Positions 3,901 through 45,434 of a DNA stretch of 45,434 nt are shown here, piece by piece. The first letter of the stretch is position 1; the number at the start of each line of letters is the position of its first letter. The stretch spans positions 1 to 45,434 of IMG/VR virus record IMGVR_UViG_3300046001_002739, one strand, 5' to 3'. Position numbers and translations under genes: made by a program. Under the pieces are notes generated by a model. That model did no database searches, was not told the origin of the DNA, and worked only from the letters and a program-made list of their open reading frames with translations. The DNA comes from a virus (taxonomy: Duplodnaviria; Caudoviricetes).

Positions 3901-4043
3901 TGGACGGTGATCACCCCCGCTGCGTCCGCGACGGAGACCAGGATGTCCGCCTCGGCGAAGACCTTGAAGGTGAACGGCCAGGCGGTTTGCGCACCCGTGC
4001 CAAGGAGAGGACCGGCCTTGCGCGCGGTGGAAGGGATCGTCAT
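999..4043 (-). CDS. Tail fiber/tailspike with putative beta-helix depolymerase domain
   Basis: Podophage-type N-terminal anchor, NINTVA heptad repeats, SVKAFGAVGDGVTND pectate-lyase-3-like motif, AT-rich C-terminal two-thirds. Confidence 0.85.
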   Translation of the reverse strand: MTIPSTARKAGPLLGTGAQTAWPFTFKVFAEADILVSVADAAGVITVQTLGADYSVALNSNQETSPGGTVTYPISGAALPVGSKLAIVGDLDYDQPLDLPSGGNFSPFSLENQLDRATMQIQQLKELSDRSAKMSVYSSNEDVEALTSGIIVLAEISTDISAVANDLANINLVVANATNINTVAGGIANVNTVGTNITNVNTVADDLNEPVSEINTVAENIADVNTVASSISAVNTVASNLSLWRDVTAGDDIQVTNFNGTGAQTTFTLPFAPGAENNTQVFISGVYQNKDQYAVAGTTITFSTAPPSGTANVEVVWSRPFVLGATDAALVGANAYQTQDGVNTERKSVKAFGAVGDGVTNDYAAFVAAGANLFVPATGTYRISTTCAVGNLHSLGGIISVDAGVVLTVDSASAQDTTVIFSGLGTVRSNQNYFSVGWFAGNSLNEKWDRCRKGFFDAKTKHVKFPEPKVGDPASVLNHYNATAWGITDTLYFEPKDNNLVVESYGRICPKQAMTVPMIIIGGLKDPTGATDFKTEDLTFTNGLLVEGAYIVDTILEIQSGARTCFANWARFRYCLGDAIKWSNSSNASDECTFENLEVSGYGGIGLNVAPQNTFISTKVNFLFTNGSGVNVVVNQTNPIVRTTQPYTGTNVLAVKGNMQGLYIGHLFENTAAAHRQVTDCLVRVTSENVVSATPAGGDFTPGTTGLVIDRITSTEQAAGVSVATTGASWSGGTATLTFSSTAIAPLVGSLIAVAGVTPSGYNGNFVVTASTTTSVSYAVAATLTVGTVNGTITVHTPLLITGVTSGTRKVMVSVGVFSFFSVSGRAVSLAYAKKSVIGKLGRTLDAIVPVNTLPLVTDISPILIASDCENIDVTNNNLIEVTNASSSLISNDRLYMAAAPTSGSGSIGDIVYNKSPAASGYLGWVCIGSSFTSTGSITAGASVLTVPSGVSIPNGTNLRIYGSGVAGGNQIPTVLSGGGTTSLTLDTAAVTTVTNAKIEIRVNAWKTFGAISA

Positions 4044-4102: not shown

Positions 4103-7100
4103 TTACTTGCTGTCGGGGCTCGGCGTTCCGGTCACGGTGCCCCGTAGGGCATCGAAGGCGCTGGTCGGGTCAATCTTGTCGGTGGCCACCCCCGCCAGGT
4201 AACCGAGCGGACGGGCGACGGCGACGGCAGGCAGGCCGGTGGCCAGGCTCACAGCGCTGGCAACGTCGCGCACGGCGTTGCGGGTGTTCAGCTTGTCCGG
4301 GTCGGTGATGGCTTTGTAGACATCGACCGGCACGCCCACCGCGGACTCCAGCAAGCTCACTGCAGGTGACAGCGAGACCTTGTCGTCGGCCGGGTTGCCG
4401 TTAAACCGGTTGATACCGGCGTTGGCCAGCTGCCCGACGAACGGCACCATGGCGAGCGAACCTTTGATCGTGCCCATACCGAACACCGCGGCCAGCCAGT
4501 CATCGAGGTAACCGTCGTCGTCCTCATCGTCAGGACCACCGCGCATTGCATGCGCGATCGCCTCGGCCACCCAGATCGGGATCAGGAACCCGAGGGTCAC
4601 CACGCCGATTGCCTTGCCCGCACCCTTCTTGAGGCCCACCTCTTGTGAGATCTGCTTGAGCGCTGTCGCGTTGGTGTTGGCCATCATGTTGAAGTAGCCG
4701 ATGAACTGCGTGAAGATCCGAGCGTAGGCCGGGCCGGTCTCGATTCGGCTCACGTCCTCTGGCAGGGTCGAGCCCTGGGTGGTGCGGATCACGCTGTCGG
4801 CTGCGCGCACGGCGTCGCGCTCTCGCTCGGCCATCGCGGCCTTGACCTGATCCGAGGTAAGGCCCGTGGTGACTAGAGCGGGCAGGGAGGTCAGCGCGTC
4901 GTTGTAGGCGGCGGTCCAGATGATCGGCTCCATGGTGTTGGCCATGGCGGTCTGCATGAAGTAGGCATGCTTCTGGCTCCAGGTCTGGGCCTTCTCGTAC
5001 AGGCTGGGGTCCAGCAGGATCTGGTCCATTGCGTCGTTGATCGCCGCGATCTCGTTGTCCATCCGGTTGGCCATGAACTCGCTGGCGTCCGACACGGCCT
5101 TGGCGGTCTTCTTCGGGCTGGCGATGAACTGCGAGGTGGCCCGCATCATACTGGCGGGCTTGACCTTGAGCGCGGCCAGGCTGAACCCGGTCAACTGCTG
5201 AATCGTGTTGCTGACATTGGCGAACATCAAGGCCATGCCTGCCCGGTTGCGGGCGGCCGAGAGCACGCGGGAGATGCCGCCGTCACCCACGATCGGGGTC
5301 TCGACGATCTGGCGCGCGCTGCGGTTCAGCCAGGGGGTGAGCATGCCAGCGTAGATGGTCGGGTCGATGCGCCCCAGCGAGTAGCTCACGCCCTTGCGCG
5401 AGAGCAGCTTCTGCACGTCGCGCACCGCGGGCTCCATGTGCGAGAACAGCAGCACCTTGTCGATGTGCTGGCCGATCGTGCGCAGGTCCAGCATCAAGGG
5501 GCGGTTGTAGTCGACCCGGCCCTTGGTGAATCCCTTGTTGGTGCCAGGGAAGCTGAACGCCATGTTCTCGTTTTCAGCCTCGGCCAGCTTGCGCAGGTCG
5601 GCGTCCTGCACGATGCTGGGGTCAGCCTGTGCGGGAACGTAGCCGCCGGCGTAGCCGCCGAACGGAGTGTCGAAGCTGTCGGCGGTGACCTCGGCGAAGT
5701 AGCGCCCGAACACGTCGCGGTGGGTCTTCTGCGCCAGGGGCTTGGTCTGCTCCAGCAGATCCCACACGCCCTGGGCGAAGTCGTAGTGCGCCTTGTTCAG
5801 CACGCCGGTGTCGTGCATGCGCTGCAGGAAGGCGTCCCACTGGGTCGTGTCCATCGTGCCGTCGGCGTTTTCAGCAGCCCAGCCGCGACCGAGCAGCAGC
5901 TTGCGCTTGTTGCTGGCGTTGCCGGTGTGCAGGATCGCGTGCAGCAGCTCGGCGTGGCCGATGCCGTTGTGCCCCTTGCCGAACGTGTAGCCAAGCTCGG
6001 GCGCGTCGATCGTGCCCTTGGTGAGCGCGGGCGCCACGTTGTCGACCAGCGCCTGGTACTTCTTGCGGTAGGCCACGCGGTCGGCGCGGTAGGCGTTGGC
6101 TGCGTCCTTGACCGGCTGGAACACCAGGCGGGTGAACTCTTGGCCCATGCCCTGCGCCCACTGCTCGGTGCGTCGCAGCAGCGAGCCCACATGTTGGAGC
6201 TTGCGGGCGAGCGCCTCGCGTGGAGTCACTGCGCTTGAGTCGCCCGGCATGGTGAGAGGCACACCGATCGCCTGCATGCGGTCCTGCAGTTCGTCCTCGG
6301 CGTCCTGCATGTCCATCAGGTTGCCGTCGATCTCCATCTGGCGTGAGCGCTTGGCCAAGTGCCACATGGCCTGGATCTCCTCGTGCAGGCCACGCAGCTC
6401 CTCCATCGTGAGCGCGTCCAGTGGCTGCGCCATGTTGAGCGCACCCTGCACGCTCGGCTGCAGCGCGGCGTACATCGCCGGGTCGTTCTTGGCGACCAGG
6501 TCCATGTACTCGGCCGCGGTCTTCGCGCCCCTGGGCGCGATGCCGTAGGCGCCGAGCACGGCGCGCGCGGCGTTCACCACGTCAGGGTCTCGCCCCTTCT
6601 CGACGGTCTTCTCGTTGTTGTCCTTGATCACGCGCTTGAAGAACGTGAGGATCTTGCGCATCTCGCCCTGCGCCTCGAGCGCTGCCTTGGCGGCGGCGTT
6701 GTTAAGCACCTGGTCCTGCTTGGCCTTGACCGCGTCCTGCGTTTTGCCGGCGGCGGTGGCTTCCTGCCAGCGCTTGCCAGCGCGGCGCTCGGCGGCGGTG
6801 TGCTGCCAGGCCTTGGCCTTGAGGTCGCGCAGCGGGGTGCGGGCGACCACGTTGGCGGCGAACTGCTTGGCCGCCTCGACGATCGCGTTCACGGTGATCT
6901 TGCTGCCCTTCGCGTTGACTTCGCCGGTGTCGGCGCGCGGGTTCAGCATCTCGGCCTGAGAGCGCAGCTCGGTGGCCAGGCTGCGTGCGCGCGCCTCGTT
7001 GTGCACCGCCTCGTTGGCGGCAGCCTCGATCGCACGCTGGTCGATCAGGTCACCGTGGCGCTCCAGCATGCGCTGGTCGGTCATGCCTTCGATGGCGTCG

Positions 7101-10100
7101 GCCTTCTTGCCTGCGACGTCGATCGCCTGCAGCATGGTCGGCACGTCGGGGTAGTTGAAGCTGTCCGCGATGGTGGCCATCTGCAGGTCGTTGTCGGCGG
7201 GGATCGGTTTCTGGGGCTTGGGGTTTTCCTTCTCCCAGGCCAGCGCCTGCGCCTCTGCCTGGTTCGCCATGTCGCGCTTGTTCTTGGCCAGCAGCTGGCC
7301 CTTCTGCAAACCCTTCACCTCGGGGTTGGCTGCCAGCAGTTCCGCCTTGAGCGCCTCGGTGGCGCGCTCCAGTGCGGCCCCGCGGCGCCCGTTCCAATCC
7401 TTCAGTGCGTCCTTGAATTCAGGGGTAGATTCGCGCAGCTTGTCCAGTGCCGCCTTCGCCTGGAACTCAGGCATCGCGTCGACCTCGGCACGCACCTCGG
7501 CCTCGACACCCTTGCGCAGTTCCTTGGCCTGATCCTGCAGCTTCTTAATCTCTTTGTTGCGGGCGTTCACGGTCCACTTCAGATCGCGCAGGCTGCGCGC
7601 GGTCAGCTTCTCGACCGCCTCGGCGGTCGCGTCCTCGTTGGGCAGCAGTCCCGCCACCTCCTCGGCTTGCGCGATCTGCTCCTCGCTGGCCAGCATGCGG
7701 TCGTAGAACTGCACCATCTCGGGGGGTAGCTTGAGGTTGGAGGGTTCGTTGTTTTGGCCGTAGATGTTCGGTGAATCGGTTGGGTTCGCGTTGTCTGTCG
7801 ACTTGATTTGGTTGCTGTCGAAAGCGACGTAGACTGTTCCGTTCCCGTTGTCGTCCACCAAACCTGGGGCAAGCCAGCCAGTATCGTTTACGTCTTCAAC
7901 AATAAGTCCGTCGTGCCCTGCGCTTTTTGCACGGTTAGCCCAGTCGTCTAACTTCAACCCCTCTGGCCCATCCCCCCAGTCTTTCCCGTTCCAATCAATC
8001 ACCATCGGGTTGTTTAGTTTTAGGTAGACGTTGTAGACCCCCGGCATCTCCTCACTGTCGCTCTCCACGTCGTCGTAGCTACCGGCGTAAGACGCCGCTA
8101 CGTCGTTTCTGCTGGAAAAGAACACCCCAACATTGCTGGTGCCGAACGTGTCGAATCCCGCCTTGGGGCTTCCGTGGTACACCACCCGCGGCTTGCCCCG
8201 TGCGTCGACCACCTTGCTGTCGCCGAACCACTCGGCGAAGTTGTCGGTTTGCCCCAACGCATCCCCGCCAGCGGGGGCTGCGCTGCGCTGCGCCACGAAC
8301 GCTTTCAAACTCTTGTAGACGTTCAGCATGAACGCCTTGAGCTTGCGCATCAGGGGCTGCAGCTCGAGGCTCGGGGCCTTGCCGGTCAGCAGGTACTGCT
8401 CATACCCCTCGGCCAGCGCCTCGTGGTGGGGGCGCTTCTGGTCGAGTGTCATCGCGTTCCAGGTGTCGAGGTCGGCAATGCCCTGCCACTTCAGGAAGCG
8501 GTCGAGGTTGGCCATCAACCCGTCGGGCGGGTTGGGCCGTGCCGCGATGCGGGTCAGGATCTCCAGGTAGGCGTGCGCCATCTCGTGGTGCACGGTCGAG
8601 AGGTTGGCGTCTGGGTTCAGCGCCAGCTCGAAGCTCTTCGGATTGAAGGTGCCTCGGGGGCCTTGCTTCAGGATGTTGGGGTCGGCCGGGTCGAAGGTGC
8701 CGAAGTTGTCGACCGACTTGAGCTGGGTCGGATCGAACGCGACGAACACGTCAGAGGGTTCGCCGGCGTACCCACTGTTGCCCCCGCCGTCGTCCATGAC
8801 CTGGCGAATAATTGCCCCGTCGTTGTTTGCTTTGCGGGCGTCGCGCACCACGCTGTCGGTAGACTCATAGTGGTCGCCGGCCGGTTCGGCCCTTGCGGAA
8901 ATGTCCTCGGCGTTCAGCCGATCCAGTTCCGCATCCCGTTCACTCTCCGTGAAGAAACCCTTTCCCTCGGGCGAGTAGAGGTTGTCACCGTTTTCGTCGA
9001 ATATTTCAAATTGCTCTACGCGCGAACCGTCCCAGTTGGCGCCCTCGAAGTTGGCTTCGTTGGGGCTGCGAATGTTGACGAATAGCGGGTAGATACCCGA
9101 CTTGCTGCCGTTCTGGAACGGGTCGCCGGTCATGTCCTCTGGGGTAAAGTTCTCACCACCGCGGTTGCGCTTCACGTAGCTGCGCGCCATTTGGCGATTG
9201 GGTGTTAGGAAGATGCCCAGGTCGCCGCGGTTCTTTCCCCCGGGCGTTTTGAACTCGGTGAAGCCGCCAATGTCAGTGCCGTGGTAAACGACTAGGGGTT
9301 CGCCGTTCTCGTCGACAGCCTTGGAGACTGAACCCGCGGTATCGGACCAGACGCCGCCCTCGACACTGGTGAAGGCTTCCCAGTCACCAAACCATGTTTT
9401 GAACTCGGGCGTGCGCACCAGCGCGTGCTGCGCGGGCGTGAGGTTGCTCGGCTTGCCGTTGGGGGCAAGCAGCGGTTGGCTTACGCCTTCTTGGGCGTAG
9501 GTTTCTCCGCTGGCGCGGCGGGCGTCGAGGGCTTCGCGGAGGAGCTGGGTCGCTTCTGCCCGAAAACCACTTGGCCGCCTTTGAGCGGGTGATTGTCCGG
9601 TAGGGGTTGTCCCCTCCTGTCCGTTACTGCCATATCCGTAGTCCTCCTTGCCGGGAAATGCGGAGTAGACCGTGTCGATTGCGACCGGGAACTCGCCACC
9701 CAATTGTTCATCCACCAGCCGGGCAAGCTCGGCGTCTTCCAGGCCTGAGTAGTTCAGGATCACCATCTGGCCGTCGGCCGTCGTGTGACCGCCGATCAGC
9801 TTCTGGCTGTCTTGCTCAAGCTCCCACAGTTTATCATAGAGCGCTGAAATCTCGGTCTCACCGTAGCCTTCAGGCAGCGTCACCGTGACCACGCCCACGG
9901 GGTCTGCACCCAGGGTCTGACGCTCGGTCACCACCATCATGCTGTCCTGTGCCAGCGCGTGGCCCAGCATCTTGGCCGCCGTGAGCGCGAGCTCGGGCCG
10001 TGCCAGGCGCAGGGTCATCGACGGGTTGGTCGCACCCATGTAGCCGCCCAGTTGCATGACGAAGTCGCCGTCGGTGCCAAGCTCCTTCAAAACCTGCGGC

Positions 10101-13100
10101 ACGATGCGTGCGGCGACCTGTTGGCTTAGGGCCAGGCGCTCGGCGCTGTCGAGCGCGTTCCACTCAGCGGTGAGCGCCGCGTCGTTGGGGTCGGGTGCGA
10201 CCTCGAACATGACCTTGGCGCTCGGGGTCTCAGCAGCGCCGATGTCGCCCTTGGCGTCGACCGCCTTCTGCGCCGGGCCTTCGTAGGTGCGGCTGGGGGT
10301 GTCGTTGTGCGGGACCTTGGTCCACGAGGGGGGCGTGATGTCGCCGGCCAGCGCAAGGATTTCTTTTTGGGCCTGCTCCTGGTCGAGCTCGCCCGACTTA
10401 TACCGCGCCCAGATGGCGTTGGCGGGCGCCTTCATGCCGCTCTTCTTTGCCGCCTCGAACAGACCGCGCACCGCTTCCCAGGTGATCGACTGCATCTCGC
10501 GTGGCAGGATGCCGCGCGCTTCGGCTGCACGGCGATAGGCCTCGAGGTAAATCGGGTAGGTGCCGTTCAGGCCGGTCATGTTGGACGAAGCGGAACCGCC
10601 GCCGCCGAACGCCTGGACCACCTCGATGTCGGCCGAGGCCAGCGGGCGCAGCAGTGCTGCCGCCACCGCGTGGGTGTCGATCGTTGCGTAACCGAGATCG
10701 CTGTTCGGCGCGAATATGTTGTTGTAAAAGTTGCGAACCTTGTGTTCTTTGCCAAGGTTGTAATAGACGTTTTCTGCGCGGCCATCCAACAGCACTGAGA
10801 TCGCTTTGCCGATCGTGCTGTAGGACTTCCACATCATCGTGGCGTCGCCGCTGCCCTCTTCGCCGTCCTCGCCCTTCTGCACGTAACCCGCTGCCCCACC
10901 CTCGGGGGTGAGCACTCGATAGGCCCGGTTGTTGTGGGTCTGGTCGTAGACACGAACCCAGCGGGCAGCGCTCTCGGGCGTGGCCAACAGTTCGCCCAGG
11001 GTCTTGCCCCGGGCCGGCACCATGTTGCGTTCGTTCGCCTCGGCGGATGCTCGGGCCGCGTTGACCTTCTTTTCGGCTTTGAGTCGGACTTCCTCGTTCT
11101 TCGACTTGAGGTTCTTGGCTTCCTTCGCTGCCGTCTTCTCGGCGGTGGCGTAGGCGCCCGCCACCAGGCGATCGGCCTCGGCCGACATCGCGTCATCCCA
11201 GGTGTGGTTGCGCAGGCCGAACACCATGTCGGCGATACGCTCGGCCTGGCTCACGTTGGCGAACCACCCGTTCTGCGGGGACAGCACCGCGATGGCGGCG
11301 GCGCCCTGCATCTCACTGATGCCGTAGCGGTTGGCCCAGGCCTCGACCGTCTTGCGCCCGCCGTCGTACCACTGCCGTGCGCGGTCGCGCATCTCTGCGG
11401 GCATGTGGTCGTGCAGCCACAGCAGGTTGTTGGTGACGTGCTCGATGAACGCCTCGACGTTCTTGACCGGGTCTTTAGCGCCCTTGCCCGTGAGCTTGCG
11501 CGTATTGGGCAGGGCCTGCAGCGCGGTGACGTTTTTCTCGAGCGTCTTGGTGTCGGAGAGCACCACGTCGAAGGTGATGTTCAGCACGTTGGCCAGGGGG
11601 TCCTCGGTCGCCTTGACGGCAGACGGCAGACGGGAGGACAGTGACTGCGCGTAGCTCTCGCTCGGCGTCGCCTGAATGAACCGCTTGATCAGCTCGGACT
11701 TGTAGACATTTGCGGTCTGGTCACCTGCGAACACGCCGGCGTCGGTCAGGGCCTGCAGCACCTCGGGGCTCTTGGCCAGCAGCTGCTGCCAGCGCGCCAG
11801 CGTGGGGGAGCCTGCGGGCAGTGCGGTGTTGGCGTTGAGCGCGTCGACCACAGCGTCGCGCCCCTTGGCCTCGCGCGTGCCTGCGGGGGCTACGCGCTGG
11901 CCGGTGGTCTTGCCTAAGCCCCCGAGCTGTTCGACCGGGATGTCTTGGTCACCCAGCATGATGACCTGACCAGACTGGGAGCCGCTCAGGCGGTCGAGGT
12001 AGCCCGAGAACCCAGCGTCCAGCACCTTGGACTCGAAGTCTTCCTGGCTGCCGCCCTTCAGGCGCAGCGGGTCGGTGTTGGAGTCGTAGACGTTGGTGAG
12101 CGTGGCCTTGTGCCCGCGGCCACCCACGCCTGCCTCTGGGTTGATGCCTGTGCCGGTGTCGGCGTAGAAGTACCCGCGCTTGGCCAGGCGCTTGTCCTTG
12201 GCATTCTTGAACGCCTCACGGTTGCTGCCCTGCAGCCCGGTGCCGTACATGCTGGTGCTGACGAACGAGCGGTCGGCCTTGCTGAAGTGGAAGCCCTCGA
12301 CGGTGATCTCGCCGGTCTTGCCCGCGTTCAACACCGCACCCTTGCCGGTCTTGTCGGTGAACACGATCGGGTCCTGCGCCCAGGCTTGCTCGGGCGTGAT
12401 ACCGAGCTCGCCGGCGATGGTCTTGTACATGGCCGCGAACATCGTCGCGCTGCCCTCGTTCACGTCCTTGCGGAACCGCCCAACGGCGTTGAGCTGGTCG
12501 AGCACGGTCTGCTCGACCGCGTCGTGGGAGGCCTGCCAGGCCTGCTGGTCGACGGCCTGGGCGATCACGCGCTCGGACTCCTGCGCCAGGAACTCCTGCG
12601 CCTTGGCGCCGGCTTCCTTGGCCTCGAACTGGCTCATCGCGCGCACGTCACCGATGCGGGCGTGCTCCACCAGCATCGCCTCAAGCGGGGTGCCGGGTGC
12701 GACCGTGAGTACGTCGCCCATCGGGATCGCCACCACGTCATTGGCGGCGAGTGCTGCCGCCATCTGCGCGGCGACACCGGGCAGCTGCGCCAGCACCTCG
12801 GGTGCTAGTTGGTTCAGGACCTCGGCGTCGACGTAGACCTCGGTCGGTGCGCCGTCGGTGCCCTCGGCCATCGACTGCACCAGGGCGCGGAATTCTTCAG
12901 GGTTGCGCTCACGTAGCAGTGCCTGGCTCGCCAGTGCCATCTGGCCCTTGATGCGCTCGGCCGACTGCTCGGCCTCGACGCCACGCTGGATTTCGACGTT
13001 GCTGCGTACTCGCACGCCAAGTGCTGCGCGCACGATCGCGGCGGAGGTGCCCGCGACGCTCGCCTCGTAACCCACGCCTTCGCCGATCTTGGCCTCGTCG

Positions 13101-14074
13101 TTGGTGAGCATTTTGCGCACCACGTCCTGCAGCACGCCCTCGGTCACCTCCTGGGTGGCCTCGATCCCGGCGGCGGCAAACTTGTCCGCCACCCAGCGCA
13201 GGGCGTTGTTCTTGATCGCAGGCGGCACCCGGTTCAACAGCGCGTCCACCCCGTATTTTTCGGTCAGCGCCGTGATGCTGGCGCCGGCGATGACCGCGGT
13301 GTCCTTCAGCGCCTGCGAGCTGTTGTCCCCCTTGACCTTCTCGTTCATCACGTCCGCGCCCTGCGCGAACAGCGAAACAAGCGAGGCCGTGCCGCCGGTG
13401 GCGATCTGCAGTCCGACCTGCTGCAGCAGCTGGCCGATACCGCCCGCCACATCGGTGGCAAAGTTCTTGTTCTCGGGTGCTGGGCCGATCACATCGCCGA
13501 GCATCTTCCAACCGCCGCCCACAGTCTTGAGCCCGCCCGCCACGTCGAGGGCCAGGCCCAGGTCGGCGCCGGTCAGATCACGCACGGCCTTGGAGACGGC
13601 CGTGAGGCCCGTGGCTCGGGCAGCAACGTCGACACCGACGCCCAGACCTGAGACCAGGGTGCCGACACCGGTGACCGCGCCTGCGGGCAACGCGCGCACG
13701 ACGTTGAAGGTCTGCTCCAGCGCGGAGAGTTCGGGGATGTGGTCGTGCACCTGGCGGGCAAACGTGCCGCCGGTGCGCATGTACTCGGCCAGTTTAGGCG
13801 AGGTCTTGAGGTGTTCGTCGGCCTTGTCCACGGCCTCCTGCAGGCGCACGTCGCGCAGGTTGCGCAGCAGTACGTCCTCTGGCGCAGGGTAGCGCTTGGC
13901 CAGGCGGGCGGCCTCGGAGGCGTCGTCCGCGCTGGTGCGGACTGCATCGTTCAACTTGAAGCGCAGGTCTTGCTGTTGGTCGCGCTCAATCGTCGCCAAA
14001 GCAAAGGGATTGCCGGTGGCCGGTGCTTGGCCAGTGGGCTCGATGTTCTTCAGCGAAAACGGGTTGTCAATCAC
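4103..14074 (-). CDS. Giant internal virion/ejection polyvalent protein (ART-like x3, HhH-glycosylase-like, SAM-lyase-like, HExxH zincin domains)
   Basis: 3323-aa ORF at the end of the ejection-protein cluster; VVYHGT and VVYHGS ART-PolyVal-type motifs, HEMAH, TIDTHA. Confidence 0.8.
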   Translation of the reverse strand: MIDNPFSLKNIEPTGQAPATGNPFALATIERDQQQDLRFKLNDAVRTSADDASEAARLAKRYPAPEDVLLRNLRDVRLQEAVDKADEHLKTSPKLAEYMRTGGTFARQVHDHIPELSALEQTFNVVRALPAGAVTGVGTLVSGLGVGVDVAARATGLTAVSKAVRDLTGADLGLALDVAGGLKTVGGGWKMLGDVIGPAPENKNFATDVAGGIGQLLQQVGLQIATGGTASLVSLFAQGADVMNEKVKGDNSSQALKDTAVIAGASITALTEKYGVDALLNRVPPAIKNNALRWVADKFAAAGIEATQEVTEGVLQDVVRKMLTNDEAKIGEGVGYEASVAGTSAAIVRAALGVRVRSNVEIQRGVEAEQSAERIKGQMALASQALLRERNPEEFRALVQSMAEGTDGAPTEVYVDAEVLNQLAPEVLAQLPGVAAQMAAALAANDVVAIPMGDVLTVAPGTPLEAMLVEHARIGDVRAMSQFEAKEAGAKAQEFLAQESERVIAQAVDQQAWQASHDAVEQTVLDQLNAVGRFRKDVNEGSATMFAAMYKTIAGELGITPEQAWAQDPIVFTDKTGKGAVLNAGKTGEITVEGFHFSKADRSFVSTSMYGTGLQGSNREAFKNAKDKRLAKRGYFYADTGTGINPEAGVGGRGHKATLTNVYDSNTDPLRLKGGSQEDFESKVLDAGFSGYLDRLSGSQSGQVIMLGDQDIPVEQLGGLGKTTGQRVAPAGTREAKGRDAVVDALNANTALPAGSPTLARWQQLLAKSPEVLQALTDAGVFAGDQTANVYKSELIKRFIQATPSESYAQSLSSRLPSAVKATEDPLANVLNITFDVVLSDTKTLEKNVTALQALPNTRKLTGKGAKDPVKNVEAFIEHVTNNLLWLHDHMPAEMRDRARQWYDGGRKTVEAWANRYGISEMQGAAAIAVLSPQNGWFANVSQAERIADMVFGLRNHTWDDAMSAEADRLVAGAYATAEKTAAKEAKNLKSKNEEVRLKAEKKVNAARASAEANERNMVPARGKTLGELLATPESAARWVRVYDQTHNNRAYRVLTPEGGAAGYVQKGEDGEEGSGDATMMWKSYSTIGKAISVLLDGRAENVYYNLGKEHKVRNFYNNIFAPNSDLGYATIDTHAVAAALLRPLASADIEVVQAFGGGGSASSNMTGLNGTYPIYLEAYRRAAEARGILPREMQSITWEAVRGLFEAAKKSGMKAPANAIWARYKSGELDQEQAQKEILALAGDITPPSWTKVPHNDTPSRTYEGPAQKAVDAKGDIGAAETPSAKVMFEVAPDPNDAALTAEWNALDSAERLALSQQVAARIVPQVLKELGTDGDFVMQLGGYMGATNPSMTLRLARPELALTAAKMLGHALAQDSMMVVTERQTLGADPVGVVTVTLPEGYGETEISALYDKLWELEQDSQKLIGGHTTADGQMVILNYSGLEDAELARLVDEQLGGEFPVAIDTVYSAFPGKEDYGYGSNGQEGTTPTGQSPAQRRPSGFRAEATQLLREALDARRASGETYAQEGVSQPLLAPNGKPSNLTPAQHALVRTPEFKTWFGDWEAFTSVEGGVWSDTAGSVSKAVDENGEPLVVYHGTDIGGFTEFKTPGGKNRGDLGIFLTPNRQMARSYVKRNRGGENFTPEDMTGDPFQNGSKSGIYPLFVNIRSPNEANFEGANWDGSRVEQFEIFDENGDNLYSPEGKGFFTESERDAELDRLNAEDISARAEPAGDHYESTDSVVRDARKANNDGAIIRQVMDDGGGNSGYAGEPSDVFVAFDPTQLKSVDNFGTFDPADPNILKQGPRGTFNPKSFELALNPDANLSTVHHEMAHAYLEILTRIAARPNPPDGLMANLDRFLKWQGIADLDTWNAMTLDQKRPHHEALAEGYEQYLLTGKAPSLELQPLMRKLKAFMLNVYKSLKAFVAQRSAAPAGGDALGQTDNFAEWFGDSKVVDARGKPRVVYHGSPKAGFDTFGTSNVGVFFSSRNDVAASYAGSYDDVESDSEEMPGVYNVYLKLNNPMVIDWNGKDWGDGPEGLKLDDWANRAKSAGHDGLIVEDVNDTGWLAPGLVDDNGNGTVYVAFDSNQIKSTDNANPTDSPNIYGQNNEPSNLKLPPEMVQFYDRMLASEEQIAQAEEVAGLLPNEDATAEAVEKLTARSLRDLKWTVNARNKEIKKLQDQAKELRKGVEAEVRAEVDAMPEFQAKAALDKLRESTPEFKDALKDWNGRRGAALERATEALKAELLAANPEVKGLQKGQLLAKNKRDMANQAEAQALAWEKENPKPQKPIPADNDLQMATIADSFNYPDVPTMLQAIDVAGKKADAIEGMTDQRMLERHGDLIDQRAIEAAANEAVHNEARARSLATELRSQAEMLNPRADTGEVNAKGSKITVNAIVEAAKQFAANVVARTPLRDLKAKAWQHTAAERRAGKRWQEATAAGKTQDAVKAKQDQVLNNAAAKAALEAQGEMRKILTFFKRVIKDNNEKTVEKGRDPDVVNAARAVLGAYGIAPRGAKTAAEYMDLVAKNDPAMYAALQPSVQGALNMAQPLDALTMEELRGLHEEIQAMWHLAKRSRQMEIDGNLMDMQDAEDELQDRMQAIGVPLTMPGDSSAVTPREALARKLQHVGSLLRRTEQWAQGMGQEFTRLVFQPVKDAANAYRADRVAYRKKYQALVDNVAPALTKGTIDAPELGYTFGKGHNGIGHAELLHAILHTGNASNKRKLLLGRGWAAENADGTMDTTQWDAFLQRMHDTGVLNKAHYDFAQGVWDLLEQTKPLAQKTHRDVFGRYFAEVTADSFDTPFGGYAGGYVPAQADPSIVQDADLRKLAEAENENMAFSFPGTNKGFTKGRVDYNRPLMLDLRTIGQHIDKVLLFSHMEPAVRDVQKLLSRKGVSYSLGRIDPTIYAGMLTPWLNRSARQIVETPIVGDGGISRVLSAARNRAGMALMFANVSNTIQQLTGFSLAALKVKPASMMRATSQFIASPKKTAKAVSDASEFMANRMDNEIAAINDAMDQILLDPSLYEKAQTWSQKHAYFMQTAMANTMEPIIWTAAYNDALTSLPALVTTGLTSDQVKAAMAERERDAVRAADSVIRTTQGSTLPEDVSRIETGPAYARIFTQFIGYFNMMANTNATALKQISQEVGLKKGAGKAIGVVTLGFLIPIWVAEAIAHAMRGGPDDEDDDGYLDDWLAAVFGMGTIKGSLAMVPFVGQLANAGINRFNGNPADDKVSLSPAVSLLESAVGVPVDVYKAITDPDKLNTRNAVRDVASAVSLATGLPAVAVARPLGYLAGVATDKIDPTSAFDALRGTVTGTPSPDSK
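9481..9633 (-). CDS. Overprinted 50-aa protein nested out of frame in the giant gene
   Basis: AAGGAGG (9643-9649) 9 nt before the ATG; MAVTDRRGQPLPDNHPLKGGQVVFGQKRP... Confidence 0.55.
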   Translation of the reverse strand: MAVTDRRGQPLPDNHPLKGGQVVFGQKRPSSSAKPSTPAAPAEKPTPKKA

Positions 14075-30780: not shown

Positions 30781-30869
30781 TGATCGCGCGCCGCTGACAT
30801 CAGGCAGGCCAGGGCGTAGCCCAGGGCCACGCCAGCGTAGAACAGCGCAGCCCCCACGAGCAGGCTCAC
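30777..30869 (-). CDS. 30-aa membrane peptide (not in the ORF track)
   Basis: GTG overlaps the cro stop; SLLVGAALFYAGVALGYALACLM. Confidence 0.5.
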   Translation of the reverse strand: MSLLVGAALFYAGVALGYALACLMSAARDQ

Positions 30870-31195
30870 AGCGCCAGCTCCAGCTGGCGGGCATCGACAA
30901 TTGGGAAATCAGACACCACGGCACGCTGGCCCAGGCACTTGGCGGCGTAGCTGCATCCCCGGCACGCCTCGCACACGTCCGTGCGGTAGACGATCGGAAG
31001 GCGGCCTTTGCTGGCCTTGGCCATCTCCATCGTCGAAGACTCAATACGCCCGGCCATGTCCGCACTGGCCTGCCGGTGGCCGCCGGCGAGTTGGTACATC
31101 TGCCCGCGGGTGGTGCCGACTTTTTGAGCCAGCAGGTGTTGTTCGTCGGCCGTGGCTGCGGACATCCAGGCCTTGATAGATGTAATGGTTTTCAT
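30866..31195 (-). CDS. cro: Cro-like regulator with C-terminal 4-Cys cluster
   Basis: LAQKVGTTRGQMYQLAGGHRQAS HTH; divergent from the repressor; CEACRGCSYAAKC. Confidence 0.75.
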   Translation of the reverse strand: MKTITSIKAWMSAATADEQHLLAQKVGTTRGQMYQLAGGHRQASADMAGRIESSTMEMAKASKGRLPIVYRTDVCEACRGCSYAAKCLGQRAVVSDFPIVDARQLELAL

Positions 31196-31201
31196 CCGCG
31201 C

Positions 31202-31259
31202 AGTTTAGCAGACGGTACAGATATTGCGTGATCTGCTACAAATTGATACCGTGCGCGAC
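31202..31259. promoter_or_regulatory. Divergent cro/cI promoters with two operator-like sites
   Basis: + strand: TTGCGT-N17-TACCGT, 7 nt to ATG. - strand: TGcTAAACT, 6 nt to ATG. Operators at 31206-31217 and 31227-31238. Confidence 0.75.
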
Positions 31260-31676
31260 ATGAAAAGCGTCTATGAACAGCGCAGGGACAACCTGCGCAA
31301 ACTGCAGGTCGAGTGGGGCGGGCCCACCTCGCTCGCCAAGAAGCTCGGCCACAGCAATGGTAGCTACCTGGCCCAGCTCATCGGCCCGCACCCCTCGCGC
31401 GAGATCTCGGAGAAAGTCGCGCGCGAGATTGAAACCAAGCTCGCCCTGCCGTCGAACTGGTTGGACGCCGAGCACGGCGCATCGCCCAGGCAAGTCGACG
31501 ACAACACGCTCGCCCTGTGTGTCGGGGCCGTCGCCGCGGCAGTGCGCGACGCGGGCGCGAAGGTCGCCCCGCAGGCTTACGGCACTTTAGTCACCCTGGC
31601 TTATGAGCACTGCAAGCTCACCGGTCGCATTGATGAATCCTTTATCCAAAAACTTGTGGGGCTCACCATAAAATGA
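31260..31676 (+). CDS. cI: CI-like repressor (HTH, no S24 peptidase domain), leaderless
   Basis: RRDNLRKL...GGPTSLAKKLG...ISEKVAREIE...WLD, a typical phage repressor N-domain. Confidence 0.8.
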   Translation: MKSVYEQRRDNLRKLQVEWGGPTSLAKKLGHSNGSYLAQLIGPHPSREISEKVAREIETKLALPSNWLDAEHGASPRQVDDNTLALCVGAVAAAVRDAGAKVAPQAYGTLVTLAYEHCKLTGRIDESFIQKLVGLTIK

Positions 31677-31901: not shown

Positions 31902-31947
31902 GCGATAGCGAAAATCAATGAGCACAGCATTTAGCAGGTGCTAAGAT
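31902..31947 (+). promoter_or_regulatory. Early promoter with operator and upstream box
   Basis: TAGCAGGTGCTA overlaps TGcTAAGAT; GCGATAGCGAAAATCAAT upstream. Confidence 0.75.
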
Positions 31948-41452: not shown

Positions 41453-41778
41453 ACCGACCGCTCACCCCAGCCGAGGCGCTGGCCACCTTCACCCCCGAGG
41501 CCGACGCCCTGCTCGACAGCCAGAAGCGCGGCCTCCTTTCCCCTCGCAGCGCCTTGGACGTGCAGGTCGCCGGCAGTCACTACAAGGGCAAGAAGATCCA
41601 GCCTGTGGAATACATCCACGCCAACGGTCTGGGCTTTCTCGAAGGATGCATCGTCAAGCGCATCACGCGCTGGCGCGACAAGCCGGCCGCCAGTCGTTTC
41701 CAGGACCTGGAGAAGATCAAGCACGAGGTCGACCTGCTGATCGAGTTGGAGAGCCGCGCGCAAGGAGCAAAGCCATGA
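41449..41778 (+). CDS. DUF3310 family protein
   Basis: QVAGSHYK...IQPVEYI...GCIVK...DLEKIKH. Confidence 0.8.
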   Translation: MNRPLTPAEALATFTPEADALLDSQKRGLLSPRSALDVQVAGSHYKGKKIQPVEYIHANGLGFLEGCIVKRITRWRDKPAASRFQDLEKIKHEVDLLIELESRAQGAKP

Positions 41779-42107
41779 GCCACCACACTCCATGGCTACC
41801 CATCCGTGTATTTTTTCAGGGGCAAAACGTACCCCCATGGTTTCAAAAAGTATCCGTATTAGCCACCCCACGCAGCAGCGGCCCGCCTAAAGTTATTTTC
41901 GGTTCCCCATCGCTATGCATCTGTTATAAAAACCAGTTTTTCGTTTGGGCACCCCTGACAAATTATTTTCTTAAGTGCTTCATTAATATAACCGGCAACG
42001 GCAACGAAGTGACGCTGAGAGGTGGAAGAGATGGCGTTTCCGTGTACTTTTCATTGTTCAAAATGCTCGCCAAAATGCGTAGTGTGGCAAAAGGGGCGAA
42101 GCCATGA
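41775..42107 (+). CDS. AT-rich hypothetical protein flanked by junction repeats
   Basis: 110 aa; ATGA overlaps at both ends. Confidence 0.5.
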   Translation: MSHHTPWLPIRVFFQGQNVPPWFQKVSVLATPRSSGPPKVIFGSPSLCICYKNQFFVWAPLTNYFLKCFINITGNGNEVTLRGGRDGVSVYFSLFKMLAKMRSVAKGAKP

Positions 42108-42373
42108 GCGCACACGCAGTATCAAACGCCCTCGCCCTCGCCCCTGCGACCGCCAAGGAGCTGATGGTCGCCACGGGTCTGAGCCGGGGCTTCATCAATG
42201 CGACGCTGCTGGGCATGGTCAAAGCACACGAGGCGCACGTGTCGCACGTCCAGCGCCAGCCGGGTGTGGCCGGTCGTCCCAGCCCGGTGTATCAAGCAGG
42301 GTTTGATTGCGCCGCGGGCGCCCAGACCTTGGCGCACGTGATGCGGACCTGGGGGTCACCATGTGCCGCTTGA
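42104..42373 (+). CDS. Winged-HTH-like protein
   Basis: TAKELMVATGLSRGFI...GRPSPVY. Confidence 0.6.
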   Translation: MSAHAVSNALALAPATAKELMVATGLSRGFINATLLGMVKAHEAHVSHVQRQPGVAGRPSPVYQAGFDCAAGAQTLAHVMRTWGSPCAA

Positions 42374-42448
42374 CCCCTGCTTGTGTGCTTCTCGCCACAC
42401 TTCGTTATGTCGCGCCGATCACCACGGGCGCGTTCTTCAGGAGACACC

Positions 42449-42643
42449 ATGAGTGACGACATTGACCGCGCACAGAACGAAGTCGAGCGCTCGCTCGGCG
42501 AGGCACTGCGCGTGAAGAAACCGGTGGGGCCTGTCGCCACCGGGCGCTGTTTGTTCTGCGATGAAATACTGGACGACGAGAGTCGCTGGTGCGACAGTGG
42601 TTGCCGCGATGCCTGGGAAGGTTTGCTAAAGCGAAAACGCTAG
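42449..42643 (+). CDS. TraR/DksA-like C4 zinc-finger protein
   Basis: DDIDRA (DxxDxA) plus CLFC...CDSGC; AGGAG RBS. Confidence 0.75.
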   Translation: MSDDIDRAQNEVERSLGEALRVKKPVGPVATGRCLFCDEILDDESRWCDSGCRDAWEGLLKRKR

Positions 42644-42727
42644 TGCATATTGCACAAAACAGGCCCCTTCGGTAGGGTGTTTTGAGCAGTAAGTATGGGG
42701 TAAGCAGTGGGTGGCTTTAGCATTTTG

Positions 42728-42755
42728 CTTGGTCACAATATACATTATGCGTACT
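42728..42755 (-). other. dif-like Xer site A
   Basis: Reverse complement AGTACGCATAA-TGTATA-TTGTGACCAAG; 21/28 to E. coli dif. Confidence 0.7.
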
Positions 42756-42774
42756 GTGGCATAATTATGTAAAT

Positions 42775-42808
42775 ACGCAGGTGCTAAGGATTTCGTTAGC
42801 TCCTGCTA
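42775..42808. promoter_or_regulatory. Tandem operators upstream of the mom-like gene
   Basis: ACGCAGGTGCTA and TAGCTCCTGCTA, 22 bp apart. Confidence 0.7.
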
Positions 42809-42821
42809 CAGAAAGAACCAA

Positions 42822-43505
42822 ATGTGGACCGTTGAACCGATAACCAAAAAGCAAGCCGATCTGATCGTGACCAGCCGCCACTACAGTCGTCGGGCTCCTG
42901 TGTTCTGGGAAGCCTTTGCACTGGTTGAGGATGGGTTCGTCGAGGGTGTCGTGATCTACGGGCAACCCTCACCGCCGATCCAGAAGCATTCGTTCGACGA
43001 CCGGGACTTCCGGTTGTACGAACTGGCCCGGCTCGTAATCCAGACGACTAAACCAAACGCGGCCAGCTTCCTCGTGGGCCGTTCTCTGCGCATGCTGAAG
43101 GAACAACCCAGCGCGGTGGTGTCATACGCCGACACGGAATGGGGCCACGCTGGTGTGGTCTATCAGGCCACCAACTGGATCTACACCGGCGCCACGAAGT
43201 CGCACGACCACGCCTATATGGTTGACGGCAAGCGCCTGCACCCGATGTCACTGCGCGACCAGGGCATCACCAACCCTAAACAGTGGGCCGCCGAGAATGG
43301 CATCCAGACGGCGCCCCCGATGGAGAAGCACCGCTACTTCTACATCAACGGGAACAAGTACCAGCACCGCGACATGCTGTCCAAACTGAAGTACCCCGTC
43401 GTCGGCCAGTACCCAAAGCTAGAGAAGCGCATGTATGACGCTGGGGCTGGGGTTCTCCTCCACACCAAGGACGTGATGGCCGACGGGTTCGGTGGCTTGG
43501 CGTGA
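42822..43505 (+). CDS. mom: Mom-like DNA adenine modification enzyme (GNAT)
   Basis: HYS, ELARL, SYAD..WGHAGVVYQATNWIYTG. Confidence 0.8.
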   Translation: MWTVEPITKKQADLIVTSRHYSRRAPVFWEAFALVEDGFVEGVVIYGQPSPPIQKHSFDDRDFRLYELARLVIQTTKPNAASFLVGRSLRMLKEQPSAVVSYADTEWGHAGVVYQATNWIYTGATKSHDHAYMVDGKRLHPMSLRDQGITNPKQWAAENGIQTAPPMEKHRYFYINGNKYQHRDMLSKLKYPVVGQYPKLEKRMYDAGAGVLLHTKDVMADGFGGLA

Positions 43506-43624
43506 GGCTGCTAAAGGACTTTTGTGCATCCTGCACTCAAAAACCGCTGTCATAAAAAACAAAAAGCGAACTCGACATTGTGCGAGATGTATCACGGAAC
43601 TCGTTGAAAAGGTTAGATAAGATG

Positions 43625-43652
43625 TACGCTAAGAATATACATTATGCGTCCT
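43625..43652 (-). other. dif-like Xer site B (degenerate XerD arm)
   Basis: Reverse complement AGGACGCATAA-TGTATA-TTCTTAGCGTA. Confidence 0.6.
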
Positions 43653-43671
43653 GAAAGAGGCATTATGACAC

Positions 43672-43705
43672 TAGCAGATGCTAAAAGATGTGGTACACTC
43701 TGCTA
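43672..43705 (+). promoter_or_regulatory. Promoter with tandem operators
   Basis: TAGCAGATGCTA, TGgTACACT, second site 22 bp downstream. Confidence 0.75.
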
Positions 43706-43732
43706 CAGAATCAACCACTTAAGGAAAGCAAA

Positions 43733-43921
43733 ATGGCCACTAAACTCGACACCCTCATCGCCTGGATCAACAACCATGACTGCGGCGTTACACCCACTGC
43801 TGTGGCCGTCGAAGGTGGCATCGAGATCCGCGTCCAAGCGGTGCACGCGGATGGGTCTACCAGCGTGGATCGGACCCTGGTAACTTGCTACAGCCAGGCC
43901 CGCGACGTCTTAGGTTACTGA
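43733..43921 (+). CDS. 62-aa hypothetical protein
   Basis: AAGGAAAG RBS; MATKLDTL...ARDVLGY. Confidence 0.7.
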   Translation: MATKLDTLIAWINNHDCGVTPTAVAVEGGIEIRVQAVHADGSTSVDRTLVTCYSQARDVLGY

Positions 43922-43994
43922 GCTGAAAACCATTTAACAATGTTCAGGCGATAGCGTACCAGTTGCGCGAACGCCACAACCTAGGAGAATCAAA

Positions 43995-44285
43995 ATGAAC
44001 AACACATCAACCCTCGCCGCCAACATGCGCAACGCCTTCATCGAGCGCAAAGGCGCCACCATCGGCGGCGGAAAATTCACGCCCGAGGAGCTGAAGGACG
44101 GCGCCTTTGCCCTTAACGCCGTGCCCAATTTGCTGGAAGCGCTGCGCGACATCGAGGCTCAGCTGTCTGGGCACCCCGACGCGGAGCGGGGTAACAGCAA
44201 GGTTCACTACTGCTTGCACAAAGCCCGCGGCGCCATCGCACGCTGCACACCCCAAGTCCCTGCTGCGGCAGGCCTTAACCCCTGA
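43995..44285 (+). CDS. Hypothetical protein
   Basis: AGGAG RBS; PNLLEAL motif. Confidence 0.75.
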   Translation: MNNTSTLAANMRNAFIERKGATIGGGKFTPEELKDGAFALNAVPNLLEALRDIEAQLSGHPDAERGNSKVHYCLHKARGAIARCTPQVPAAAGLNP

Positions 44286-44320
44286 ACGTAAGCGCCGTTA
44301 TGCGAACCAAGATTCAAGAA
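44245..44320 (+). repeat. 76-bp junction repeat copy 1, containing dif-like site C (44281-44308)
   Basis: Aligns without gaps to 44625-44700; CCTGAACGTAA-GCGCCG-TTATGCGAACC. Confidence 0.75.
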
Positions 44321-44677
44321 TTATCTGGCGTAGATCTCGACCAGGCGGTTGCCGACGCGGTGGGCGTCAAGGTTGGTATCTGTCTGGGTGGCTATCTCGC
44401 CCTGGCCGATAGCATCAAGCACCACCGGTACTGCGCGAAGGGCTACTCCCCTTCCACCGACTGGGCGCAGGGCGGCCCCTTGCTGGAGGAGTACGCCATC
44501 GGCGTGATCGCCATCTCAGACGCGGAGTGGGCGGCCGTCGAGCAGATCACGCACTGCCACGGTCGGGGCCCAACCTACCTGGTGGCCGCGATGCGTTGCC
44601 TTGTGGCTTCGCTCGTTGCAGAAAGCACACCCCAACCCGCTGACCCGTCAGCGATCAACCCTTTGAAAGAATCGTGA
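44300..44677 (+). CDS. DUF2591/NinX-like protein
   Basis: ELSG.DLD.AVA, YSPSTDWAQGGPLLE, GPTYLVAAMRC. Confidence 0.8.
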   Translation: MRTKIQELSGVDLDQAVADAVGVKVGICLGGYLALADSIKHHRYCAKGYSPSTDWAQGGPLLEEYAIGVIAISDAEWAAVEQITHCHGRGPTYLVAAMRCLVASLVAESTPQPADPSAINPLKES

Positions 44678-44700
44678 TTATGCGAACCACAATTCAAGAA
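44625..44700 (+). repeat. 76-bp junction repeat copy 2, containing dif-like site D (44661-44688)
   Basis: CTTTGAAAGAA-TCGTGA-TTATGCGAACC. Confidence 0.75.
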
Positions 44701-45171
44701 CCCATGTTCTACATCGCCAGCCTGAAGCACACCCAGAAGCACCATGAGCACATCACCTGGTGGGGTAAAGACAGCCGCGGCTACACCCCCGTCGTCGGTG
44801 ACTACATCGGCGAGTACCCGCTCTGGGAAGCGCTTCGGCTCAACGACGGCGTGGACTGCCTGGCGGTGCCTGTCGACGTGGTCAAGTCCTTTGTGAGCCC
44901 TGAGCCTTACTGGAAGCCGGGCGCCAAGTTCTACGACCAAGTCGGTCCTGTGGTCGACAACACCCGGGCGTTGTGGAACCGGCTGATCGCCGCGTCCCTC
45001 GCTGAAGGACGGCACAGCAAGCCGAAGCCCGAGGTGTTTCGCGGCAGCCGCCGGGGGTTTCTAACATGGCGTCAGGTACACGGGTTGTCATTTACTCCCT
45101 TTCATCGCCGTCGCAACGGCTGGCACAATTTTCTCCGCGGTTCTACCAATGACGTAACCGCCGAGGCCTAA
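44680..45171 (+). CDS. Hypothetical protein
   Basis: MRT start equivalent to the previous gene (alternatives 44674 or 44704); ITWWGKDSRGYT. Confidence 0.7.
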   Translation: MRTTIQEPMFYIASLKHTQKHHEHITWWGKDSRGYTPVVGDYIGEYPLWEALRLNDGVDCLAVPVDVVKSFVSPEPYWKPGAKFYDQVGPVVDNTRALWNRLIAASLAEGRHSKPKPEVFRGSRRGFLTWRQVHGLSFTPFHRRRNGWHNFLRGSTNDVTAEA

Positions 45172-45434
45172 TTCAACGATGGACCAGAGCTTGAGATACT
45201 CAGCTTCGGATAAATTGGGTGCCGCCCAGCCGAACCAGCGCGCCACGATGAGCGCACCGAAGGTCAGCATCAGGATGGGGCGCCAGGACGAGGCCAGCCA
45301 GTTCTCGCTCGCGGCCTCGGTCTTGACAATCTCGGCGCGCTGCGTGAACTCGGCGAGCTCGCCCTTCTGCGCCAGCTCCAGCATCGCCAGGCGTGCCTGG
45401 TCGCGCTGCGTGGGGTCTGGCCACAGCCGGTCGA
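45088..45434 (-). CDS. 3' part of the putative 3-TM holin (starts at 176)
   Basis: WRPILMLTFG...GLGGYVIGRTAEK. Confidence 0.7.
   Translation of the reverse strand, partial: DRLWPDPTQRDQARLAMLELAQKGELAEFTQRAEIVKTEAASENWLASSWRPILMLTFGALIVARWFGWAAPNLSEAEYLKLWSIVELGLGGYVIGRTAEKIVPAVATAMKGSK
45308..45434. repeat. Terminal direct repeat (copy 2)
   Basis: Identical to 1-127. Confidence 0.9.

Follow-up and report, generated by a model that had tools for sequence, protein, structure and literature searches.

How a temperate tailed phage that encodes no integrase might enter the chromosome of its host, and why its accessory genes should be separated by sites resembling dif, is the question raised by the right end of the IMG/VR record IMGVR_UViG_3300046001_002739 (Caudoviricetes), whose 45,434 bases constitute the window analyzed here. 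This is a complete phage record with direct terminal repeats. Its proteins follow a podovirus plan, its SNF2 helicase is 54% identical to the counterpart in Bordetella phage BPP-1, and it represents a complete BPP-1-like temperate podophage without integrase. Searches for tyrosine integrases and resolvases across the genome found neither, in agreement with the initial annotation, which had seen no phage recombinase. The array of sites (A to D) is located between the helicase/DksA genes and a convergent holin gene. We consider, with a probability of roughly 60%, that this region would serve a tailed phage lacking an integrase as its lysogeny module, borrowing the XerC and XerD recombinases of the host in the manner of TLC-phi, and that it expanded into a same-orientation array for gene addition and exchange.

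The four 28-base sequences originally reported as A to D were all located where the initial annotation had placed them, and the single orientation claimed for them was borne out: at A to D the XerC-arm motif reads on the plus strand of the window, as did 71 of 71 matches in the variable region of the clade. The clade comprises loci of related phages (L004 and so on) that are kin and partly duplicated, and counts made over them are therefore not independent. In the window the heptamer TTATGCG occurred four times, always on the plus strand and always at A to D; TTATGCGNMC gave four matches vs. a mean of 0.35 in shuffled sequences, and none of 100 shuffles reached four. Over 62 loci, with duplicates kept in, the XerC-arm motif was found 71 times in 181 kb of variable region vs. 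once in 746 kb outside it. The genome-wide matrix scan that had been proposed as a check yielded 29.3 bits for A, 26.0 for C, 23.9 for B, and 22.4 for D, the next best score being 8.7, in a comparison that is partly circular since the matrix (both arms of 82 sites of relatives, window and L004 excluded) was trained on motif-selected sites. Two or more sites were present in 21 of 50 loci (20 without a chance match in L040). Two weaker candidates fared differently: the one at 43932-43960 was retained, as described below, whereas the one at 45059-45086 ranked 4193rd in the matrix scan, coincides with antisense coding sequence of a truncated gene 3' of the holin, and was rejected. The motif TTATGTAAAT at 42765, considered as a second XerD arm, was discarded as well, there being no XerC arm at the right distance. 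Positions 41500-45434 were covered with zero differences by two contigs of the probable source run (a lake metagenome), which are not independent of the window.

Site A (42728..42755, minus strand) consists of the XerC arm AGTACGCATAA, the centre TGTATA (42739-42744), and a degenerate XerD arm, TTGTGACCAAG, keeping T1 and G5. Throughout the clade it kept a single position, which in most close relatives was 0.5-1.8 kb past the helicase gene, and its centre read TATACA on the plus strand in 49 of 52 primary contexts; TATACA is the reverse of TGTATA, the centre of several betaproteobacterial dif sites (PMC2731167). When compared with proteobacterial dif and with 13 metagenomic dif sites, A matched in the XerC arm and the 6-bp centre, and one of the 13 was identical to it in both; identity of the window sites to the canonical XerD arm was low (3-7 of 11). 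The XerD-side arm, on which the site search placed no selection, varied among relatives except at its fifth inner base, which was G in 27 of 28 distinct primary arms. The exceptional arm has T1-T2, so that a G5-or-TT rule was obeyed by 28 of 28, and this pattern matches the G5 or T1-T2 requirement in the XerD arm measured for integration driven by XafT (PMC9226527). A is very probably an XerCD phage attachment site (attP) acting on dif. It had been taken for one cassette joint among others; it is more than that, being the single conserved attP-like site of the clade and occupying the slot that holds an integrase in one nested lineage. Two further observations concern its surroundings. In most primary sites the XerD-side arm coincides in part with an inverted repeat showing compensatory changes (42712-42738 in the window), which resembles the operator half-sites. 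The sole sigma-70-like promoter called in the region (42744-42773, minus strand; TTTACA-18-CATAAT) points leftward across A, with a chance expectation of 1.2.

At the distal end of the array, relatives carried a gene for a protein with helix-turn-helix (HTH) and DUF3653 domains, which is the architecture of XafT (PMC6744903). The DUF3653 family was matched by 18 of 18 aligned XafT-like proteins at E<=1, the first member having an E-value of 1.2e-6, which is over the cut-off. Of the loci examined, 54 reached from the helicase to the late genes; 42 of these contained both the site and the XafT-like gene, and 43 when L042 is added, which has the gene together with a site whose palindrome carries two mismatches; seven had the site only, three had neither, and one had an integrase without site or gene. 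Once L042 is counted, the XafT-like gene occurred without a site in none of the 54. The integrase lineage was nested within the clade (FastTree) and the integrase sits in the same slot; integrases (PF00589) were absent from 9 of 9 further near-complete site-bearing genomes, and the complete genome L028 had neither site nor integrase. The region had been thought to rely on host XerCD alone, and in this respect the proposal had to be amended, as the clade encodes a homologue of a XerD activator.

In the window genome itself no match to the XafT-like gene was found, and the HTH-DUF3653 protein typical of TLC-type IMEX (mobile elements that integrate by making use of Xer) is thus missing here. Comparison with L004 placed a deletion junction at about 45049 (45040..45055), away from any Xer site; at this point L004 has a further site of the C kind (C-type) together with the XafT-like gene and the greater part of a gene of 167 aa. 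The junction was spanned by a zero-difference contig at a depth of 117. These comparisons indicate that the window lost its XafT-like gene through a deletion at about 45049. Of 50 loci with a site, 7 kept it while the gene was truncated or lost (the window, L009, L016, L026/L027, L040, and L180), and these are dispersed across the tree.

The association was found again in a second tailed lineage (41-42 kb records with Cas4 exonuclease and Sak4; L107, L131/L164, L142, L153, and L174), which had the same palindrome, a TATACA site, and an XafT-like gene, with boxes at 82 and 42 bp in L107 and L131/L164. Two bacterial genomes served as positive control: in their elements of 836 and 1213 bp (L189, G136:C205, and L191, G406:C7) an XafT-like gene is flanked on one side by a canonical dif and on the other by a degenerate G5 site, which is the junction order expected for the phage module; in L189, a second weak XafT-like match lies just beyond. 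The GTGCA palindrome described below was absent from both of these mini-elements. Among cultured phages, the XafT-like protein gave only two weak Vibrio phage matches and the site region none, and in plasmids neither of them was matched.

The module between A and B, 897 bp from centre to centre, carries a Mom-family DNA modification gene (42822..43505, plus strand; PF25680, E 3e-34), as it had been labelled at first. Its leader (42756..42821, plus strand) includes a TAGCA-NN-TGCTA-like dyad (42797-42808) that is also present before early genes at 31932, 32743, 34948, and 37997. The relative L004, whose flanks are 97-98% identical, matched the window to the end of A and resumed at 43634 inside B, without the 897-bp mom module; a mom gene of 58% identity is found in L004 after the D-type site, and the A-to-B-leader join of L004 was also found in relatives from two runs. 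Site B (43625..43652, minus strand) is a secondary site with the centre of A (43636-43641) and the XerD-side arm TTCTTAGCGTA, which has T1 and T2 and no G5. B-like secondary contexts numbered 14, with six arms, all of them G5 or TT; one context (L042) is really primary. With identical centres in A and B, the A-B circle is the plausible one of the two excision products that had been proposed. Behind B, a promoter-like leader (43653..43732, plus strand) contains the dyad TAGCAGATGCTA (43672-43683) and an extended -10-like element, TG-G-TACACT (43691-43699). We infer a promoter in this leader, where the sigma-70 scan called none; in the sigma-70 and terminator scan at the sites, no plus-strand promoter and no terminator appeared, promoter-like leaders being present behind A and B only. 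About 85 bp of promoter-like sequence are common to A and B, and the dyad behind both sites is likely a repressor operator. The following 62-aa gene (43733..43921, plus strand) has a homologue (75%) in L037, where it comes immediately after the primary site. It is succeeded by the weak site w1 (43932..43960, minus strand), in which the outer halves of both arms are intact, the inner bases are degenerate, and the centre measures 7 bp. Its matrix rank was 2657, yet the fixed-length form ATTTAACAAT-N12-GCGTAC[CT] was present in five phages between different genes; w1 likely binds Xer proteins without cleavage or is a decayed site.

Sites C and D are joined more tightly to their genes. The 96-aa gene (43995..44285, plus strand) ends inside C, which belongs to an element (44236..44308, minus strand) made up of a degenerate palindrome (44236-44248), a 32-bp spacer, and the site proper (44281-44308), with the centre GCGCCG (plus strand), the XerD-side arm TTACGTTCAGG, and the XerC arm GGTTCGCATAA; the same centre was found in L004 and L097. 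The ATG of the next gene, a NinX-family member (44300..44677, plus strand; PF10765, E 6e-14), lies inside the XerC arm of C, and this label also holds, as we take PF10765 to be the DUF2591 of the initial annotation. The D element (44616..44688, minus strand) comprises a palindrome (44616-44628) and site D (44661-44688) with the centre TCGTGA (plus strand). Stop codons within C (44283-85) and D (44675-77) and ATGs within the XerC arms (44300 and 44680) were confirmed as originally described. The last open reading frame (ORF; 44680..45171, plus strand) is a chimera: phrog_23101 covers residues 10-125, residues 126-163 match the late gene region of L004 at 95%, and its tail, from about 45049, is antisense to a truncated late gene. 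Homology to five relatives stopped at 44687-44689, the XerC-arm end of D, and between C-type sites pair identity dropped to 0.28 from +18. C-type elements in general extend over about 73 bp, from the palindrome through the last XerC-arm base, after which identity falls to background; they supply the ATG for the next gene, and the 6-bp arm spacing was kept in 23 of 24 rows. The 380-bp C-D circle proposed at first is unlikely, because Xer recombination usually requires identical or near-identical centres (PMC11705084) and those of C and D share 2 of 6 bases. In seven phages with several C-type sites, no two sites shared a centre within any one of them, which is not significant. In L002, L003, L020, and L022, C-type sites were also seen to the left of the primary one, immediately after DksA, and lacked the 43-bp palindrome.

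The recombination sites form part of longer elements than the 28 bp initially delimited, with a palindrome of the form GTGCA-N3-TGCAC at a fixed distance on the XerD side. Its copy at A (GTGCATATTGCAC, 42643..42655) ends 83 bp left of the centre, and in 36 of 36 first-position sites this distance was 83-85 bp; of 24 C-type contexts, 19 had a degenerate palindrome at exactly 43 bp to the left of the centre, as did B. Upstream of B there is an exact copy at 43524-43536 (99 bp) and a degenerate one at 43580-43592 (43 bp), and the same left flank precedes two secondary sites of L097. Across 47 site-bearing loci the exact palindrome was counted 50 times in 141 kb of variable region vs. 0 times in 606 kb outside, and it did not occur in 6 loci without site and activator. 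Distances of 10, 43, and 83-85 bp approximate 1, 4, and 8 helical turns, whereas 99, 122, and 133, also seen, do not. The palindrome is predicted to be an accessory protein-binding box, and one may guess that the HTH of the XafT-like protein binds it. As a separate observation, a further site type, CATAA-N6-TTACACGTA, stands directly behind the palindrome, about 112 bp before a secondary TATACA site, in L009, L012, L017, L019, L100, and L167, and a variant in L016, L090, and L180 ends in TTACACGCACT and resembles w1.

Changes of gene content in relatives were followed at these sites. In 65 TATACA contexts, 4 of 4 pairs that share the downstream gene and not the upstream DNA matched from base 0 of the centre. 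In 15 pairs with common upstream DNA and a different gene, the first mismatch fell at +14 to +19, which are the first variable positions, and in 11 of the 15 it was inside the XerC arm. Breakpoints in TATACA contexts fit a crossover in the centre, within an invariant 14-base core that cannot fix the exact point. With respect to the C-type sites, L086 and L095 were identical over about 850 bases, with their first difference at +3 of the centre, and the window and L004 carried different genes between the same two centres, GCGCCG and then TCGTGA; gene swap between matching centres is the pattern described for replacement of single pdif modules (PMC13141974). Gene content in relatives thus changes at the sites, the case for C and D being thinner, with one clean centre breakpoint. 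On these alignments, B-type modules probably arose through Xer crossover at the TATACA centre, while for C and D as Xer-recombined slots the balance appears even. Cargo genes were varied: 13 of 50 ORFs scanned matched Pfam, including four DNA methyltransferases, Mom, Nmad5, and Acb3. The Acb3 CBASS (cyclic-oligonucleotide-based antiphage signaling system) inhibitor is encoded at L034:9479-10336, and L022:4470-5671 contains a Vut_1 gene, presumably queuosine-precursor transporter-like, with a 237-aa neighbor.

If the region is a Xer-dependent lysogeny module, the XafT-like protein would activate XerD on poor XerD arms, perhaps via its HTH on the palindrome, and A would recombine with the host dif. 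Sites A and B, sharing the TATACA centre, would recombine mutually, so that promoter-carrying modules such as mom could enter at A and be excised again. C-type centres would act as compatibility keys, hindering deletion within a genome and permitting two-step gene replacement between matching centres in co-infecting relatives, and the sites themselves would give the incoming gene its start codon. In the window, the array would be frozen after the loss of the XafT-like gene unless complemented in trans. Of the integron-like array first envisaged, the Xer-like sites, their enrichment, their single orientation, and the changing gene content stand; the role of A, the dependence on the host only, and the length of the sites had to be corrected, the C-D circle is unlikely, and the 45059 site is spurious. 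A wider formulation, which we put forward tentatively and at less than even odds, is that tailed phages may have built an analogue of the integron from host XerCD and an XafT-like activator, with attP as the cassette insertion site, centre-coded slots for swapping counter-defence genes, a phased palindrome steering the HTH, and deletion of the activator gene locking the array.

Several results weigh against Xer-driven integration and exchange. A clade prophage at dif was not found in GTDB, in metagenome junction searches, or in class-level profile searches, which did not reach the likely host order. The GTDB scan with the helicase gave four distant loci and no close prophage, with no dif-like site in the three checked; in the metagenome scan for a junction of host XerD arm and phage leader, 13 of 13 hits were ordinary dif, without match to 19 window proteins or the XafT-like set; and the profile searches of 400 class-level genomes plus five small groups, in which the likely host order was not represented, returned short elements only. 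No excised circle, back-joint, or host junction was present among the matches listed in the contigs of six runs, and contigs drop rare forms. All four base-0 pairs involve one secondary arm; 4 of the 15 pairs with common upstream DNA, window and L004 included, were identical through the whole XerC arm (+17, +19), and promoter parts and leaders were mosaic further right, for which reason homologous exchange probably contributes to gene turnover at the sites. At C-type sites, the only clean centre breakpoint stands beside two other pairs that diverge about 30-40 bases upstream, and in L086 and L095 the left module of the first site is the same over its full length in spite of different upstream genes. 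Centre conservation was rejected as proof for this class, as 14 pairs were identical but mean pair identity was only 0.44, no better than that of the spacer; moreover, the left arm can also be read as a ribosome-binding site. Finally, the G5 rule was derived from Vibrio enzymes, and the window itself is without the activator gene. As a side observation, L190 and L193 contained one dif-like site each.

Of the competing explanations, the most serious, which we nevertheless hold to be unlikely, is that A alone works as a Xer site (attP) and that B, C, D, and w1 would be derived copies kept as promoter, operator, or translation-start modules and shuffled by homologous or microhomologous recombination, as in the PeSL cassettes of T4-type phages, which provide the precedent (PMC2839356). 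It would account for the promoter-like stretch of A and B, for crossovers also found at +17 to about +60, and for the stop codon, ribosome-binding-site-like GAAnGGAA, and ATG inside C-type sites, and an exonuclease and an annealing protein of the gp2.5-like kind are encoded by the phage. It leaves unexplained that the left flanks of secondary modules are unrelated while the modules themselves begin at base 0 of the centre, that three unrelated kinds of left flank obey the G5-or-TT rule, and that arm spacing and the 43-bp palindrome distance are strict; nor is there a protein reason for unrelated genes to start with M-R-T, and the mom gene of L004 uses a separate ATG behind the site.

Much less probable is a construction of the array at the host dif, where co-integration and co-excision with small Xer elements would have left the extra sites as capture scars. 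The order A-module-B is also what co-excision would yield, elements of a single gene do occur at dif, and joint excision is described for TLC-phi and CTX-phi (PMC6744903); the modules, however, bear the operator-like dyad and the palindrome of the phage, the latter missing from both bacterial mini-elements, and C-type centres do not match dif. Slightly more doubtful still is that the phage does not integrate and that the sites would serve an extrachromosomal need, either genome-dimer resolution in a plasmid-like state or titration of Xer proteins. The failure to find an integrated copy in the GTDB or metagenome scans and the loss of the XafT-like gene at several separate places of the tree, with retention of the site, speak for this, whereas integrating elements are marked by just this combination of a dif-identical centre and an activator homologue (PMC6744903, PMC12715192), one and the same slot holds either the module or an integrase, and no partition or plasmid replication gene was found among the ORFs scanned. 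As for chance resemblance to dif, which the low identity to the canonical XerD arm might suggest, enrichment and conservation refute it for A to D, to the point that we give it practically no weight; it does hold for the 45059 candidate.

In integrons, units of one gene each follow a primary site and a promoter in a direct-orientation array, and IntI and attC hairpins are at work. The array described here is likewise direct, and the newest module would likely be next to the primary site, but there is no IntI and the joints appear to be double-stranded Xer-type sites. Closest is the TLC-phi satellite, a TLC-type IMEX using XafT (PMC6744903, PMC9226527), with which the clade shares the absence of an integrase, a double-stranded attP, the XerC arm, a 6-bp centre, a degenerate XerD arm keeping T1/G5, and an HTH-DUF3653 protein. 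In contrast with TLC-phi, we are dealing with a 45-kb tailed phage with several internal sites and a fixed-distance palindrome (XafT needs no flanking DNA), the window has no activator gene, and integration is predicted. Vibrio dif-type double jelly-roll prophages and CTX-I inoviruses (PMC12715192) also have a repressor, an XafT homologue, a dif-like attP, integrase-bearing sister types, and an adjoining hypervariable region. Those elements are non-tailed, and in the available part of that report no Xer sites are described as separating the genes that vary; here, sites do separate the variable genes, whose place is between attP and the XafT-like gene.

The pdif (xrs) modules of Acinetobacter plasmids (PMC11705084, PMC13141974) resemble the array in the several 11-6-11 sites flanking accessory genes and in the variable centres; the replacement of single modules at matching centres, described for pdif, would fit the window/L004 and L086/L095 pairs. 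According to the same sources, pdif sites occur in alternating orientation, with a XerD arm that is kept and a XerC arm that varies, and are mostly FtsK-dependent, whereas here every site is direct, it is the XerC arm that is fixed and the XerD arm that is degenerate, and an activator homologue is encoded; neither the alternation nor the conserved XerD arm with variable XerC arm was found. T4-type PeSL cassettes share repeated regulatory modules in a hyperplastic region where genes are swapped, and are promoter-terminator repeats without Xer arms, dif centre, or activator gene (PMC2839356). The array would work like a TLC-type IMEX with pdif-like modules and is not itself a pdif system; the window alone, for want of the XafT-like gene, falls outside the TLC type. 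In the accessible literature, subscription papers and supplements being outside its scope, XafT or dif-integrating phages were listed only among non-tailed elements and no phage Xer-site array was listed; tailed prophages could be part of the DUF3653 tree that accompanies PMC6744903 as supplement.

Should the Xer interpretation be true, XafT-type hijacking of Xer would no longer be confined to small non-tailed elements; it would be shared by at least two lineages of tailed phages of 41-46 kb, and tools that go by the integrase would class these as non-integrating. Accessory genes of phages would also be seen to turn over through a site-specific mechanism, with cargo including the methyltransferases, Mom proteins, and the anti-CBASS protein Acb3. 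Dozens of natural site variants, with a near-invariant XerD-arm base and a fixed-distance palindrome, make activation of XerD by XafT-like proteins at imperfect sites directly testable.

Elsewhere in the genome, a divergent repressor pair (cro-like, 30866-31195, minus strand; cI-like, 31224-31676, plus strand), matching PHROG transcriptional repressors at E 2.6e-11 and 0.0024, constitutes the predicted temperate switch. The sole hint of the host was a close XafT-like homologue named from a Rubrivivax metagenome-assembled genome, on a 3.4-kb contig. The virion region encodes a 3323-aa protein (4103-14074) with ART-PolyVal, LPD22, and DUF7178 domains. Next to it, the gene for a 1014-aa tail protein (999-4043) has 48-50% GC vs. 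about 62% for the genome and is likely a swapped receptor-binding module.

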